A stretch of DNA of 64,000 nt from an uncultured bacterium (GTDB lineage Bacteria; Krumholzibacteriota; Krumholzibacteriia; Krumholzibacteriales; Krumholzibacteriaceae): positions 96,001-160,000 of the forward strand of contig CAWBAN010000004.1 of the NCBI GenBank assembly GCA_963786935.1, in the 5' to 3' direction. A program made the position numbers. Of the stretch, positions 6,001 to 15,000 are shown in pieces. Each line of letters begins with the position of its first letter. Positions within the stretch are counted from its first letter, which is position 1.

Positions 6001-9000
6001 GAGCGCGATCCGGATCTTCATGGAGCCGATTCTACCACGGCGGAGCCGCGCCGAAAAGCCCTAACGAAACCGCCGTCAGGAGAGGCGCAATGGACGGCGC
6101 GCGAAAGGCCCGCGAGAGAACCGGCTATTTGTAGAGCTCCTTGATGGCGCCCCACGTCGTTTCCTCGACGCCCAACGGGCCGAACGGCTCGAGCGGCGAG
6201 TAGCAGCCGCCGTTGAACACGAACGCGCCGCCGGGGAGGGCGATGTAGATGGGAGCCCCCTCGATACATTCGGTTATGACGATGGCGTGCTGCGGCACCT
6301 GCTCGGGATCCGCAACGACCGCGACGGTGAACGTATCCGGGTCGGAGACGTTCATGACCGGAATCGTACCCAGCGATACGTAGTCCGCGTCCGGGAAGCA
6401 CTCCGGCGAGACGAGGGAGATCCCCGTTTCGACCGAGCCGAATATCAGGATAATGCTCGACGGCCATGTCTGCGGCAGGATGGCGGAGCCGGAGCTCGAT
6501 TTCAGCAGCTTGAATTCGTACCCCTGGCCCATGCGGGGGCCTTCGCCGCGCACGTAGTAGAGGTAGAGATTGCCGATCGCCCCTATCCCTACGTCCATAT
6601 GGCATTCATTGTGTTCCGTATCCGAGAAGAGAGCGAGCATTCCCTGCTGGGCGTTCGCGCCGGCGGCGAGACACGCCACGAGAACGATAGACAGAAGCAG
6701 ACGTTTCATCGTGCACCTCCATACCCCGAGGATTCCCCGCATATGGCCTTTTATAGTGAAATCTCGAGCATATTATACGCCCTCCGGCGCCCTCGGGTCA
6801 ATCTCGAAGGGCTCCGGGGCTGGAGCATCCGGAACGGGGCGGGCGCGACCCGAGGCCCCGCCGGAGGCCTCCTAAAAAGCCGTGAAACTATGTTCCTTCC
6901 GCGGCGTACTACAGATAGATGGTTTATGATGCAGCCGGAAAGGAGCCGGGCTATGAAAAGGACTTTGATCATTTCATTAATTCTTTTAATCGCAGCGATC
7001 TACCAGCCGCAAGCGCTTCGTGCCGATTACAGCCGGACGATCGAGAAAAGCTTCGCCGTCCCGATGGGGGGCAGGCTCGTGCTCGACCTGAACGCCGGAG
7101 GCGGCGTGGAAATCAAGGGGTGGAGCAAGGCGGAGGTCGCGGTCAGGGTCGATATCGGCGGGAACGACGCGGAGCGGGTCGGCGTCGAGTTCGAGCCGGG
7201 CCCCTCGGGCCTGACCGTCATTTCCGAATGCAAGAAGCGGCATCATGCCCGCTACGATGTGGATTACCGCATCATGGTGCCGGCGCGCTGTGACGTGAAA
7301 ATCGAATCGAACGGCGGCGAGGTGACGATCGAAGGCGTCGAGGGAGATCTGAGTGGCCAGACGATGGGCGGAGCGCTCGATCTGACCCGCGTCAAGGGGG
7401 ACATCGACCTCGAGACGATGGGCGGCTCGGTGCGTGTCGAGGACTCGGAAGCGGATGGCAAGGTGCATACGATGGGCGGCGAGGTGGTTATCCGCAACGT
7501 GAAGGGGAACCTCAAGGGTTCGACGATGGGCGGGGCGGTGACCTACGACAACGTGACCGGGCGCTCCGCCTCTTCCGCGGACGACGACGAGATGGACGTG
7601 TCAACCATGGGCGGCGACATCACGATCACGAGCACCGACAGGAAGGTCAAGGCGAATACGCTCGGCGGGGACATCGAGATCGAGAAGGCGGAAGAGGTCA
7701 ACGTGACGACGATGGGAGGGGATATCGACATCGACGATGCCCCCGCCGGCGCGAAGGTCTCGACGATGGGCGGGGACGTCACGATCCTGAAGGCGGGGAA
7801 GTATGTCGCCGCCAAAACGATGGGCGGCGACATCCGGATCGAGGCGATCGACGGCGAGATCGACGCGTCGACGATGGGCGGGGATATCGAGGCCGTGATG
7901 GTCGGCGATCCGGCGACGGGAGACCGCGACGTCGATCTGTCGTCCATGGGCGGGGACATCGAGATCACCGTGCCCGCGGGGCTCTCGATGAAGTTCGATC
8001 TCGAGATCGAGTACACGAAGAAGCACCACAGGAAATGCCGGATCGAGGGCGACTTTCCGGTGAAGATCGAGGAGAGCGCCGACTGGGAGCACAACTTCAT
8101 AGGTCAGGCCCACAAGCACATCTATGGAACGGGCGAGGTCGGCGGCGGCAAACATCTGATCAAGATCAAGACGCGCAACGGCCATATCGCGATCAGAAAG
8201 GGATAGCGGCGATGAGCGAGGCGCCCTGCCGCGCGAGCGCCTCGCACCCCGTTCGATTCAATCCTTCCCGGAAATCCTGCCGCACAATCGGCGAGCGGCC
8301 CCGCCCGCGAGAAAATAATTGTTGACATAATCGGCATTTTGCTGGACAATATTCTCCGATTCGGCCCCTTATACTAATAATTATTTGCGGCGGTGACGAT
8401 CCCATGAATCAGGGTCAAAACGGATTCCATCCCCTCGACATCCGCATCCTCGAGATTCTCCAGAACCAGGGTCGCATTCCGAACGTGCAGCTCGCCGCCG
8501 AGGTGGGGCTGAGCCCGTCGGCCGTCCTCGAGCGCGTGCGAAAGCTCGAGGAGCGCGGCGTCATCGACCGGTACGTGACCCTCGTCGACAACAAGAAGGT
8601 CGGGCTCGGCACGATCGCGTTCGTCGCCGTTTCGCTCAATCTCCACCAGCAGGATTCGATCGAGAACTTCCACCGCTTCGTGCGGGAGAGCGGGCACGTG
8701 CTCGAGTGCTACCACGTCGCGGGAGGCGAGGATTACCTCCTCAAGGTGTACGCGCGGGACATCGACGATTACGAGCAGTTCCTCCTCTCGAGCCTCACGA
8801 GGACCCGGGGCATCGACAAGGTGAAGACGATGTTCGTGCTCTCGACGCTCAAACGGGAGACCGCCGTGCCGCTGACGTCGGCCGCCGAGGGCGCGCGGAA
8901 CGGAACGAACGGCGAGCCGCCCCCGAAGCGCGGGAAGGCCGCGTGCGTCGGCTGCGAGAGAAAACGAAACAAACGGGACAAAACGAATAAACGGAGATAA

Positions 9001-12000: not shown

Positions 12001-15000
12001 CGTCGAGGCGGGGCTTCCGGCGGGCATCCTCAACGTGGTGACCGGCTACGCGGCGAAGACGGGGGACGCCCTCGTCACCGACCCGCGCGTGCGCATGATC
12101 AGCTTCACCGGCGGGGCCCCCGCGGGCGAGGAGATCGTGAAGAAGGCCGGGCTCAAGAAGGTCGGCATGGAGCTCGGCTCGAACACTCCCGTCATCGTCT
12201 GCGAGGACTGCGACCTCAAGCGCGCCGTCGAGGATTCGGTGTCGGGCGCCTTCTGGGCGGCCGGGCAGAACTGCATCGGCGTGCAGCGAATCTACATCGA
12301 GAAGGGAATCTACAAGCGTTTCGAGACGCTCTTCGTCGCGCGGACGCGCAAGTACAAGGTAGGCCCGAAGCTCGACGAGGACTGCGACATGGGCCCGATG
12401 ATCACCGAGGGAGAGGCGAAGCGCATCGAGGGATGGGTGAAGGAAGCGGTGAAGGCGGGCGCGAAGGTGCTCACCGGCGGCAAGCGCCGCGGGGCGATCT
12501 ACGAGCCGACCGTGCTCGCGAACGTTCCCGCCGGGTGCAAGGTGGACGTCGACGAGGTGTTCGCTCCGACCGTGAACCTCTATCCGGTGAAGAACCTCGA
12601 CGAGGCGATCGCGAAGGCGAACGCGGTGAACTTCGGCCTCCACGCCGGCATCTTCACGAAGGACGTCAACAAGGCGTTCAGGGCGATCAGGGAGCTCGAG
12701 GTCGGCGGCGTCATCGTGAACGACTCGTCCGACTACCGCATCGACATGATGCCGTTCGGCGGCGTGAAGCGGAGCGGCCTCGGCCGCGAGGGGATCAAGT
12801 TCGCCCTCATGGAGATGACCGAGCCGCGCGTCGTGTGCTTCAACCTGTACTGAGGCGCCGTCGTCCGCGCGGAGACGCGGGCAGCTACGCGAGGCCGAGC
12901 ACGTCGGCCATCGTGTAGAGCCCGGGCTTCTTCCCGTGGATGAAGCGGATCGCCCTGAGCGTTCCGCGCGCCATGGTGCGGCGCGAATGCGCCCGGTGGG
13001 TGATCTCGAAGCGCTCCCCCTCGCCGGCGAAGATCACGGTGTGCTCGCCGACGACGTCCCCGCCGCGGAGCGAGTGCATGCCGATCTCCCCGCTCTTCCG
13101 CGCGCCGACGATCCCCGCGCGCCCGTGCACGACCGCCGCGCCCGGACGCGACTTCGCGACCGCGTCGGCGAGCTTCGCCGCCGTCCCGCTCGGGCTGTCC
13201 TTCTTCTTGTTGTGATGGATCTCGACGATCTCGGCGTCGAAATCGCCGAGCGCGCGCGCGGCCTCTTCGACGATCTTGAACATGAGGTTCACGCCGGCCG
13301 ACATGTTGGGGCTGATGATGAGCGGGATACGCCCGGCGGCCTTCCGCGCGGCCGCGAGCTCGTCGGCGGTGAAGCCGGTCGTGCCGACGATCGCGGCGCG
13401 CCCCGCCGCCGCGCACGCCGCGATATGATCGAGCGCGGCCTTCGGATTGGTGAAATCGACGACGACGTCGCAGGCGCCGAGCGCCTTCGCGAGGTCGTCG
13501 GTCACCGTGACCCCCGCGAGCGAGGTGCCGAGCCCGGGATTCCCCGCGGCCTCGATCGCGCCGGCGAGGGAGAGCTCCCGGTCGGCGGCGATCTCCTCGA
13601 CGGCGGTGCGCCCCATCTTGCCGAGCGCCCCGCATACGACGACTCTGATCATAGCGCTCCGATCCGCTCCCCGTCGCGGGGGCGTTCTATTTCACGACCT
13701 TGAGCCCGAAGTCGACGAGCGCCGTGCGCAGCTTCTCGCGGTTCTCCGGAAGGAGCCCGACGAGCGGCAGCCGCACGTCGCCCACGTCCATGCCGAGCAT
13801 GTTCATCGCTTCCTTGACGGGGGTCGGGTTCGTCTCGATGAACATCGCCTTGCAGAGCGGGAAGAGCTTGTAGTGGAGCTTCCGCGCCTCGGCGAGGTTC
13901 CCCTTCTCGTAGGCGGCGATCATCGCGAGCATCTCCTTCGGGACGATGTTCCCGACCACGCTCACGATGCCCTTGCCGCCGCACGCGAGGATCGGCAGCG
14001 TGATGCCGTCGTCCCCCGACATGAGAATGATCTTGTCGCCGCAGAGGAGCATGATCTCGCACATCTGCTCGAGGGAGCCGCTCGCCTCCTTGATCGCGGC
14101 GATCCGCTCGTGCGCGGAGAGGCGCTGCACCGTCTTCGGGAGCATGTTGAGCCCGGTGCGCCCCGGCACGTTGTAGAGCATGAGGGGCAGCCCGCCCTCG
14201 TCGGCGATCTTCATGAAGTGGGCGTAGAGCCCCTCCTGCGTCGGCTTGTTGTAGTACGGCGTGACGACCATCGCCGCGTCGGCGCCGAGCTCGCGCGCCT
14301 TCTTGACGTTGTCGATCGATTTCTGCGTCGCGTTCGTCCCGCAGCCGGCGCAGATCTTGATCTTGCCCTTCGCCTCCTCGACCGCGATCTCGATGATCCT
14401 GAAATGCTCCTCCCACGTGTAGGTGGGATTCTCGCTCGTCGTCGCGCACGGCACGAGCCCGTCGGTCCCCGCCTTGATGTGAAACTGCACGAGCTCGCGC
14501 AGCTTCGCCTCGTTGAGCCCCCCGTCTTTCTTGTTGAACGGCGTGACGAGAGCGACGTACAAACCCTTGAACATGGTACCCCAGCCTCCTTCTCGCAACC
14601 CTTTCGGAATATTGCGGTTAACGCTTATTCTGAGCGGGCGGCCGGGAGCGCCGCCGCGGAATTGCCTGAAGAGACATTATGCGCCGCGATGCGGGGTGTC
14701 AAGGGGATAAGGGAAACAACGGGTGCGGGGCGCCGCGCCGCCTCCGCTCTCACGGGACGAGCTCGCGCCGCCAGGGAAAGAGAGAGAATATGCCGCCGGT
14801 GTGAATGAAGAGAACGTTGTCCGATTTTCTCCAGCGCCCCCTCGCCGCCTCGCCGGCGATGCCGAGCATCGCCTTCCCCGTGTAGGCCGGATCGAGAAAG
14901 AGCCCGAGGCGCCGGGCGAACGTCCGGATGAGCTCGATCCCCGCTTCGGCCGGCACGGCGTAGGCGGGGCCGTCGTAGCCGCCGGCGATCTCGACCTCGG

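Follow-up and report, generated by a model that had tools for sequence, protein, structure and literature searches.

Homoserine dehydrogenase (Hom) probably supplies DapA with aspartate semialdehyde in a Krumholzibacteriaceae-like genome (G000, 96.5% complete) from which the known routes to this intermediate are absent, and a MetY-like lyase (lyase A) encoded beside it may be the source of the homoserine. Both steps taken jointly stand, in our judgement, just on the favourable side of even. The genes lie in a stretch of 64,000 nucleotides, hereafter the window. The core of the proposal (homoserine from the lyase, oxidised by Hom to the semialdehyde that enters the diaminopimelate, DAP, pathway) had been put forward in a preliminary description of this DNA, and it is supported and strengthened by three independent comparative lines drawn from genomes: the loss of the aldehyde dehydrogenase (ALDH) with hom kept at dapB, the swapping of lyase A with a second lyase (lyase B), and the occurrence of lyase B with thrC and HomK where Hom is missing.

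Gene content and organization of the locus

DapA, DapB, DapF, a DapL-like enzyme and a DNPR-type MurE are all present in G000, and profile and tblastn searches agree with the earlier statement that aspartate kinase (AK), Asd and LysA are not. Precisely, the sole PF02774 match is GAPDH, UMP kinase and carbamate kinase account for the two PF00696 matches (sequences read by eye), tblastn of the genome with Asd and AK queries from relatives gave no match, and neither LysA nor an ArgC/ArgB-like or ProB-like kinase was found in it. Its sole class III aminotransferase shares 24% identity with a DoeD-like protein. DapF scored 183 bits against a cut-off of 114.65. The dapL assignment stood as regards the family, LL-DAP aminotransferase being clearly the best one, but the score of 430 bits lies under the curated cut-offs of 507 and 593. 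The DNPR motif, which we take as a marker of DAP-type MurE, occurs in all five MurE examined, including that of G000, for which it had been claimed.

Gene identities and coordinates are as first described (Table 1). The promoter search returned 2 sites, versus 0.6 in shuffled sequence, and the Hom start codon was placed after AGGAGG. Among 25 close lyase A loci, the Lrp/AsnC regulator gene is upstream of the lyase in 23, hom is present in 24 (one a fragment; 23 in the earlier count), ALDH in 19, and dapB is reached in 11, the last two as counted before; the opposite-strand dapBA pair is, as already cautioned, not always adjacent, which counts against the proposal. No conserved transporter was found in the cassette, nor any ABC importer among its neighbours. 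The dapA motifs TT, PYYNK, YNVPGRT, IKEAS and SGDD, whose catalytic roles we assume, were all found; dN/dS is 0.08-0.23 for dapA and, within the genus, 0.20-0.33 for dapB.

Table 1. Features of the cassette and of the adjoining dap genes in the window
Feature	Position	Strand	Evidence
Sigma-70-like promoter match, upstream of lrp	8322..8350	+	TTGACA-17-GACAAT, 10/12; consensus match only
Lrp/AsnC-family regulator, first in cassette	8404..9000	+	Pfam AsnC_trans_reg and HTH
MetY-like PLP gamma-family enzyme (type A, lyase A), putative homoserine source	9041..10231	+	PF01053
ACT-less homoserine dehydrogenase (Hom), putative homoserine to aspartate semialdehyde	10242..11441	+	PRK06270, 428.7 bits (cut-off 373)
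Non-phosphorylating ALDH, putative oxidation of aspartate semialdehyde to aspartate (a dispensable catabolic branch)	11438..12853	+	PF00171
dapB, convergent with cassette	12885..13652	-	TIGR00036, 274 bits (cut-off 122); EIHHxxKxDxPSGTA motif
dapA, proposed anabolic sink for aspartate semialdehyde	13687..14574	-	TIGR00674, 343.5 bits (cut-off 206)

Distribution among related genomes

Asd was found in none of the 15 genomes of the genus, 3 of the 42 of the family, 6 of the 8 of the sister family and all 14 controls; for genus, family and controls these are the values given before. At the Asd-positive loci of relatives, AK was observed beside asd. An ordinary biosynthesis, in which asd and lysC would just be missing from the assemblies, Hom would reduce the semialdehyde and the lyase would be a normal O-acylhomoserine sulfhydrylase, seems to us extremely unlikely, and is largely refuted by the distribution of Asd together with the absence of MetX. 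The assemblies are indeed incomplete, the same Hom clade is found in lrp-hom-asd-AK operons of family f5, and the database name of lyase A is O-acetylhomoserine sulfhydrylase-like. However, Asd is absent from 24 of the 31 high-quality genomes of the order, a single-contig one (G010) included, and present in 69 of the 71 genomes of family f7; MetX did not rise over noise in 52 genomes (just one weak partial match, 25.7 bits), which bears out the absence claimed earlier, and lyase A falls under all MetY and MetZ cut-offs.

DapB is encoded in 30 of the 31 high-quality order genomes, with 29 over cut-off (the figure reported previously) because one copy is split across contigs, and in 26 of the 27 family genomes that are at least 85% complete. 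DAP could be imported from the environment, for which cell-wall debris in sediments would be a plausible source, the cassette being catabolic and the dap genes idle or otherwise employed. Uptake would, however, make the kept dap genes dispensable, whereas dapA and dapB show dN/dS of 0.06-0.33 with intact motifs, and DapF and a DapL-like gene occur in all five genomes tested; we therefore give this explanation very little credence.

The Hom ortholog is present in 34 of the 42 family genomes (33 before; one copy is a contig-end fragment) and, as stated, in 1 of the 8 of the sister family. Among the 31 high-quality order genomes, Hom occurs in 22 of the 23 Asd-negative, DapB-positive ones versus 3 of the 7 Asd-positive ones (Fisher p 0.006, for related genomes that are not independent). 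In G011, which retained asd-lysC, the site before dapB is empty. Seven relatives without Asd and without DapB carry hom with ALDH after it; since the cassette occurs there without the DAP pathway, we read it as a module of amino-acid catabolism that DAP synthesis has co-opted.

Homoserine dehydrogenase and loss of the aldehyde dehydrogenase

The cassette Hom is the only one of G000, in which ThrB, ThrB-alt, MetX and HomK were not found, so that it has no known biosynthetic job there. It ends in a low-complexity K/A/P-rich C-terminal tail and is 46-48% identical to rhizobial plasmid proteins; the ALDH shares 52-54% identity with rhizobial ALDHs and 64% with one of Priestia, in both cases encoded after hom. 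The rhizobial values are similar to the Swiss-Prot identities first given (Hom 44%, ALDH 51-54%). Hom groups with the rhizobial catabolic Hom (RlHSD) at 100/99 support, in a tree with only two outgroup rows of which one is long-branched, and has the VAVSD strand end in common with it. Its motif is GFGVVG (GxGxxG), not GxGxxN, which, like the place of the clade in f5 operons with asd and AK, counts against the proposal; an Asp at the second strand end, which we assume to be an NAD fingerprint, is suggestive of NAD+ use as far as sequence can tell.

ALDH would compete with DapA for aspartate semialdehyde and stands outside the DAP route. Its ortholog was lost in six genomes (G012, G015, G016, G026, G027 and G028). 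The Asd-negative ones G012, G015, G026, G027 and G028, from three genera, kept Hom, and in four of these five some 80-140 bp separate hom from dapB. Hom adjoining dapB after ALDH loss has a dN/dS of 0.06. A 42-44% identical ALDH paralog, retained in five of the six genomes, could stand in for the lost enzyme. The loss of ALDH with hom kept at dapB supports the anabolic reading of Hom.

We also considered a purely catabolic cassette, running from its substrate through homoserine to aspartate, with the semialdehyde of DapA coming from an unrecognised source, such as an aspartate-reducing tungsten aldehyde oxidoreductase or a promiscuous transaminase. The hom-ALDH pairs of the seven DapB-negative relatives fit such a cassette, as do an AOR-like match in G000 (to a motif that is presumably indicative) and G008 (94% complete, 270 contigs), which has dapAB and no Asd, Hom, lyase A or lyase B. 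An MGL-like gene matched in the 51 other genomes is missing from G008 too, so an assembly gap is possible but unproven. This explanation, which we judge quite improbable, would leave unaccounted for the low dN/dS of Hom at dapB, the presence of Hom in nearly all Asd-negative genomes against its lack in four of the seven Asd-positive ones, and lyase B in thrC-HomK operons; moreover, any semialdehyde that Hom forms from homoserine would be within reach of DapA, which shares the cytoplasm with it.

The two lyases

Lyase A is 75-88% identical across the family, with Y58, R60, Y113, K211, R240, H339 and R374 invariant, and its AlphaFold model matches the MGL/MetY fold at TM 0.93-0.95. It scores under every NCBIfam cut-off shown (TIGR01326, 415 vs 495; TIGR01325, 387 vs 510) and under that of the methionine gamma-lyase profile (377 vs 549.7), with YGGT instead of YGC. 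Its identity to the MGL-like enzyme of G000 itself, encoded on contig C3, is 40%, and the two are separate genes, as the preliminary description had it. The equivalent of Arg270 of T. maritima MetY is kept in both lyases: R240 is invariant in 51 aligned lyase A rows (matched via the LRD motif of 8sf5) and R297 in 21 aligned lyase B rows (aligned to 7kb0 R270). According to the MetY study, this arginine closes off the active site and MetY shows no gamma-elimination (PMC8191291). Canavanine is, on sequence grounds, an unlikely substrate of lyase A, because of the MetY-type arginine and of an identity of 33% to both lyases of a rhizobial canavanine-type locus; homocysteine or methionine is likeliest.

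Lyase A occurs in 17 of the 25 Hom-positive high-quality order genomes and lyase B, also MetY-like, in 7 of the other 8; one genome has neither and none has both, and all six Hom-negative ones are without either lyase. Lyase B is only 35-37% identical to lyase A; a 31-row tree supports their sister relation at 97/98, and an 83-row tree leaves it unresolved. Scoring 8,000 candidates with a lyase B query gave 3,844 proteins with E of 1e-100 or below, some of which may be more remote members of the family. In family f7, lyase B is beside thrC and a HomK-type homoserine phosphotransferase gene in 12 of 12 loci, and the PF00742 domain of Hom was not found in 10 of those 12 genomes; in one metagenome contig lyase B is paired with thrC and ThrH instead of HomK. 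This link bears on lyase B and not on lyase A, which counts against carrying it over.

Given that Hom supplies DapA, the lyase likely makes rather than uses homoserine. In the opposite direction, homoserine would be scavenged or come from lactone or SAM breakdown, Hom would still feed DapA, the lyase would join homoserine with sulfide to give homocysteine for methionine, and all three gene contexts would be homoserine-salvage operons. The MetY-like character of both lyases agrees with this, as do a homocysteine methyltransferase domain and SahH in G000, and G072 and G076, two of the seven DapB-less relatives, which have hom-ALDH with neither lyase. T. brucei is reported to make threonine from external homoserine (PMC4460637). 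We nevertheless regard salvage as unlikely: the cassette has no conserved transporter, known MetY enzymes take acylated homoserine while MetX is absent, it would be less likely for a whole family to depend on free homoserine than on methionine for an essential part of the wall, and lyase A heads operons that end in ALDH, as a feeder would.

Proposed route and its obstacles

From the observed gene content, synteny, co-occurrence and purifying selection we infer every flux and direction of the following route. The MetY-like PLP enzyme would remove the gamma leaving group of a C4 amino acid, with homocysteine or methionine as the likeliest one, and add water to give homoserine; if the lyase makes homoserine, a sulfur amino acid is somewhat favoured as its substrate. 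Hom of the NAD type, run in reverse, would oxidise homoserine to aspartate semialdehyde, which DapA would capture with pyruvate as co-substrate; the remaining steps to meso-DAP for MurE would fall to DapB, the DapL-like enzyme and DapF. No lysine would be made, because LysA is absent, and ALDH would divert surplus semialdehyde to aspartate. The presence of the catabolic cassette may have allowed the loss of asd-lysC. Such an entry would spend no ATP on activation, and the DapB step would be balanced by the NADH that Hom yields.

One obstacle is thermodynamic: with an equilibrium constant that we assumed to be near 9,000, reverse Hom would bring the semialdehyde to no more than about 0.02-11 uM when NAD+/NADH is 1-20, with ALDH competing. 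One preprint describes Hom of P. putida and of E. coli as irreversible in vivo (bioRxiv 2025.02.17.638773). In another, homoserine-making E. coli asd mutants were still supplied with DAP (bioRxiv 2023.06.29.547045); homoserine is thus not DAP-sparing there, which counts against the proposal. Water addition to give homoserine, followed by NAD-only oxidation, has a precedent (PMC9533460).

Comparison with known systems

That precedent, the canavanine route of Pseudomonas canavaninivorans and Rhizobiales (CangL, NAD-only HD, AH/AC), shares with the cassette a PLP gamma-lyase, which in the cassette would likewise give homoserine by water addition, and then Hom and a non-phosphorylating ALDH, and rhizobial loci also have a dapA-like gene. 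The G000 lyase lacks the motifs of both lyases of the WSM2304 locus (RCangL was picked by position in an unannotated record), and G000 has no aspartase-level match. The purpose there is catabolic, whereas G000 has neither Asd nor AK and requires the semialdehyde for its wall. The oxidative Homs (AnHSD and RlHSD, WP_011654697.1; bioRxiv 2021.02.09.430557) are likewise ACT-less and followed by ALDH; the cassette Hom differs from them in GxGxxG for GxGxxN, a motif tied to NAD-only Hom in that Arthrobacter preprint, and in its proposed anabolic role.

With T. maritima MetY (PMC8191291), to which it is sister in the 31-row tree, lyase A shares the fold, Y-G-G-T and Arg60; it is at most 41% identical, lacks the MetY insertion (being 396 aa long), has HTTHLG for HLANVG and SGNAT for GGHG, and, in an order without MetX, is proposed to run towards homoserine. 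Methionine gamma-lyase, of the same family, is its best solved-structure match (about 41% identity). Lyase A has no Cys at the 116 position, Arg for Lys at 240 and His for Ser at 339; the role of that Cys in methionine gamma-lyase is our assumption. The canonical DapL-variant DAP pathway has DapA, DapB, DapF and a DNPR MurE in common with G000, where a DapL-like enzyme would take the aminotransferase step, and differs in having AK, Asd and LysA.

Implications

To our knowledge, AK and Asd are regarded as the obligatory entry to DAP, and deletion of asd is a standard means of making bacteria DAP-dependent. A natural family with the DAP pathway but without AK and Asd would show a bypass. More broadly, it is possible, though doubtful, that two MetY-like subfamilies produce homoserine by hydrolysis of methionine or homocysteine in anaerobic protein degraders, so that the aspartate-family pathway is run from its far end: to DAP via reverse Hom in the Krumholzibacteriaceae-like family, to aspartate via ALDH, or, in f7 and on metagenome contigs, to threonine via HomK or ThrH and ThrC. 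If true, genome-based auxotrophy calls would change, lyases now labelled sulfhydrylases would receive a named function, the family would show what escape from DAP auxotrophy requires, and methionine would be a natural carbon-skeleton donor for cell wall and threonine.

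The cassette and the DAP genes of G000

The window's genome (G000; 3.26 Mb, 5 contigs, 96.5% complete) carries lrp, a MetY-like PLP lyase (type A), hom, coding for homoserine dehydrogenase (Hom), and a non-phosphorylating aldehyde dehydrogenase gene (ALDH), facing minus-strand dapB and dapA; the genes and strands of the preliminary description were borne out, and its counts were reproduced to within one genome or locus. The absences it had claimed also held for G000: the sole Asd-domain match is GAPDH, tblastn with the Asd and the aspartate kinase (AK) of relatives gave no match, the two amino-acid-kinase matches read as UMP kinase and carbamate kinase, and LysA is absent. 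Of the diaminopimelate (DAP) set it had listed, MurE with the DNPR motif and DapF over its cut-off stand, whereas the DapL-like protein, though the best match, falls below the cut-offs. The closest named relatives of the lyase are from Krumholzibacteriota, some labelled Krumholzibacteriaceae. Contigs of two metatranscriptome runs overlap parts of lrp, hom, ALDH, dapB and dapA; short, partly from relatives and possibly DNA, they were set aside as RNA evidence.

Other features of the locus were observed (see table). A gene of the D-cysteine desulfhydrase / ACC deaminase family, under all cut-offs, lies immediately upstream of dapA, a position held only in the window's genus among the loci seen. 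A nitrilase-family amidase gene (N-carbamoylputrescine-amidase-like, below cut-off) adjoins the cassette site in several genera, mostly divergently, and was not found in G000. The C-terminus of Hom is a low-complexity tail of ~55 residues, rich in Lys, Ala and Pro, that is missing from the other genera examined. The NAD+ synthase ORF has 532 aa versus ~580-600 aa in relatives, possibly through truncation or a frameshift at its end.

Features and loci considered (bare coordinates are those of the window)
Feature	Location	Strand	Source
NAD+ synthase ORF	4423-6021	-	window
lrp	8404-9000	+	window
Cys/Met-family PLP enzyme (type A lyase)	9041-10231	+	window
hom	10242-11441	+	window
Hom C-terminal tail	~11280-11441	+	window
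ALDH	11438-12853	+	window
D-cysteine desulfhydrase / ACC deaminase family gene	14750-15760	-	window
Phosphoglycerate-mutase-like gene	19961-21166		window
Threonine-synthase-like gene, PRK08197 type	C1:282543-283484 (L197)		G000
Split methionine-synthase-like cluster	C2:77270-80957		G000
lrp - aminotransferase - 419-aa protein - hom - ALDH	L082:5623-11358		G010, away from lyase A
lrp-hom-asd-AK operon	L210:5813-9592; L211:7388-9951		family f5
AK-Hom fusions	L367-L378		family f7
lrp - type B lyase - thrC - HomK	L254-L259, L262, L263, L267, L363-L365		family f7
Further loci listed with the thrC-HomK type B observation	L284, L285, L288, L291
Retained Asd	L004-L013, L215-L217		the order
Nitrilase-family amidase	L074, L075, L076, L080, L084, L090, L091, L092, L233		relatives
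Ectoine-catabolism-like cluster	L181:1027-10515		Priestia megaterium plasmid

Absence of Asd and retention of the dap genes

Asd is absent from 24 of the 31 high-quality genomes of the order, single-contig G010 among them. In other families of the phylum an Asd-domain match, which may stand for ArgC as well, was found in 5/5 (f4), 10/11 (f5), 69/71 (f7) and 8/9 (f9) genomes, and less frequently in f6 (4/10) and f8 (10/16). DapB is kept in 26 of 27 family genomes, with a dN/dS (Nei-Gojobori, pairwise) of 0.06-0.33 for dapA and dapB. The Asd gap is real and the dap genes are not decaying, hence a source of aspartate semialdehyde must exist.

The Asd retained in this order, with AK alongside, was assigned by score to the archaeal/eukaryote type (asd_EA) in the one case tested, in contrast to that of family f5, which is of the asd_B type. 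G011, where dapB and the upstream gene have no gene between them, and family f3 appear to have the same upstream gene, which suggests an ancestral site.

Hom as probable supplier of aspartate semialdehyde

G000 has one Hom only, with neither a known upstream source nor a known downstream user; ThrB, ThrB-alt, HomK (the phosphotransferase-type alternative to ThrB) and MetX were not found in this genome. Hom is present in 22 of the 23 Asd-negative, DapB-positive genomes versus 3 of the 7 Asd-positive ones (p 0.006, an overstatement, because the Asd-positive, Hom-negative cases stem from just two lineages, one being G011 and the other comprising three f3 genomes).

ALDH provides a sharper test than these counts. 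Its ortholog is missing in five Asd-negative genomes of three genera (G012, G015, G026, G027, G028) and in G016, four of these having the end of hom ~80-140 bp from dapB; G021, with hom at a contig end, is undecided. In genomes without DapB, ALDH follows hom in 7/7 cases, and the dN/dS of hom is 0.06. The catabolic exit would thus be dispensable where DapA is the other exit, with hom staying, with the caveat that 5 of the 6 genomes retain an ALDH paralog (42-44%) found in Hom-negative genomes too. We consider it quite probable that Hom supplies DapA.

The direction of the reaction has to be weighed against this reading. In published accounts, homoserine meets the threonine and methionine needs of E. 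coli asd mutants while DAP is still given, and Hom is called irreversible in vivo. Taking an assumed equilibrium constant for the Hom reaction, we calculated that reverse Hom would give ~0.02-11 µM semialdehyde at NAD-like ratios and <0.03 µM at an NADP-like ratio. With such a low yield, the route requires an NAD-linked Hom, a pull by DapA and a low demand, a combination that would be plausible in slow growers.

The window's Hom groups with the rhizobial catabolic Hom named in bioRxiv 2021.02.09.430557 and has the same VAVSD strand end, but the GxGxxN motif of that preprint is missing from it. The window's Hom clade also adjoins asd and AK in an lrp-hom-asd-AK operon of family f5, in which DapB was found in 0/11 genomes, ThrB did not exceed its cut-off in the 3 tested, thrC-like genes are present and the relatives' second MetY-like lyase (type B) lies elsewhere in 9/11 genomes; for this operon, either a biosynthetic role or an ATP-yielding reversal that turns homoserine into aspartate is conceivable. 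AK-Hom fusions of ~580 aa follow a cystathionine-gamma-synthase-like gene in f7 genomes without lyase B.

Lyases A and B as proposed source of homoserine

Type B (464 aa, 35-37% identical to type A) occurs in Hom-positive genomes without type A: the 25 high-quality Hom-positive genomes have A (17), B (7) or neither (1), never both, and 6/6 Hom-negative high-quality genomes have neither. Lyase B adjoins lrp-hom-ALDH-dapB in G051, and lies within lrp-lyase-hom-ALDH operons in families f6 and f8.

In family f7, type B was found in 12 of 71 genomes, with thrC and a HomK-type gene in 12/12 loci and lrp in 11. ThrC was over cut-off in 2/2 and HomK in 4/5 of those tested, the HomK call leaning on the thrC context because these proteins also exceed the phosphoglycerate-mutase cut-off. 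HomK is described as a tested alternative to homoserine kinase in PMC13759103. The Hom domain is absent altogether from 10 of these 12 genomes; a threonine operon without Hom must have another source of homoserine, and the gene found in that place is the lyase. Judged from its gene content, the operon is a candidate threonine route bypassing Hom. Among 17 close metagenome loci of type B, many of them short, thrC was found in 4 (one with ThrH, one with HomK), hom or ALDH in 3 and MetX in none.

This evidence concerns type B and would extend to type A by mutual exclusion, not by a firm tree. A and B are sisters at 97/98 in a 31-row IQ-TREE tree and unresolved in an 83-row FastTree tree (one long-branch row omitted, outgroups reduced from 103 to 32); a single clade of both, not recovered once rows were added, was given up. 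Taken alone, the gene contexts are also compatible with a lyase that consumes scavenged homoserine instead of making it, as it could do. We lean somewhat towards a lyase that supplies homoserine, together with a Hom that supplies DapA.

Lyase chemistry and candidate substrates

Both lyases have the arginine aligned with T. maritima MetY Arg270, which, according to PMC8191291, bars cysteine and succinyl groups from the site, and MetY enzymes do not eliminate to 2-oxobutyrate. The swap of a small gamma group (sulfide, methanethiol) for water would suit a site of small size with a stable ketimine. A related lyase adds water to canavanine, followed by an NAD-only Hom and ALDH (PMC9533460); the window's lyase is a different enzyme (33% identity).

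G000 has SahH, MetK and a separate methionine gamma-lyase (MGL)-like gene, so that homocysteine and methionine are both available. We would rank these two substrates first, and SAM or S-methylmethionine next. The full route, from methionine or homocysteine through lyase, homoserine, Hom and DapA, is put forward tentatively, as possible rather than probable. The predicted type A structure (pLDDT 87) failed as a substrate guide, matching MGL, MetZ and MetY folds about equally; its nearest solved structure is ~41% identical at most, and the best match of the type B profile is MetY.

A split methionine-synthase-like cluster of G000 reads as a corrinoid protein, a homocysteine-binding domain (the only one confirmed by family search), a reactivation-like domain and a trimethylamine-methyltransferase-like gene.

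Other sources and sinks

A threonine-synthase-like gene of G000, with matches in 4/4 family genomes tested but none in G048, was discounted as a homoserine sink because no homoserine kinase was found in this genome: the hit for ThrB is IspE-like, and the gene resembling phosphoglycerate mutase scores 176 versus the HomK cut-off of 446. Diaminobutyrate or ectoine as homoserine source in G000 was rejected; the Priestia lyase is only 38% identical, and the M24, M20 and cyclodeaminase proteins of the Priestia and Rhizobium clusters have no match in G000. The Priestia megaterium cluster itself holds a cystathionine-gamma-synthase-family gene, an M20 peptidase, hom and ALDH, with no diaminobutyrate transaminase in the stretch, and a gamma-lyase may turn diaminobutyrate into homoserine there. 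A motif scan of G000, a weak test, gave no credible aspartate-semialdehyde sulfurtransferase, carboxyspermidine dehydrogenase, DAP dehydrogenase, MetE, LuxS or spermidine enzymes. Brachyspira was not relevant, PMC2650404 describing a normal pathway.

Exceptions and overall reading

G008 has dapAB and lacks Asd, Hom and both lyases; since the MGL-like gene, otherwise universal, is missing there as well, an assembly gap is possible, and its genus-mate has the cassette on short contigs, apart from dapB. Contig ends account for the less complete exceptions G007, G018 and G038, and two f3 genomes (G045 and G050, 84% and 82% complete) are exceptions without explanation. Seven relatives have hom-ALDH without DapB, two of them without A or B lyase, and in G010 hom-ALDH is relocated behind an aminotransferase gene and a gene for a 419-aa protein with no match in Pfam, NCBIfam or the Atlas, a locus that would be another feeder of the hom-ALDH module. 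These cases indicate that more than one feeder can serve the module and that its origin was catabolic. Asd-negative, Hom-positive genomes of other families, being without DapB, count towards catabolic use and were dropped as independent support.

In the open-access literature, most subscription papers being outside our scope, we found no account of a natural organism that lacks Asd and makes DAP from homoserine, and none of lyase subfamilies A and B. The enzymes are of known kinds; what is new is the entry to the DAP pathway and the probable lyase reaction. We consider the feature real and the genomic case for a kinase-free, Asd-free entry to DAP strong.
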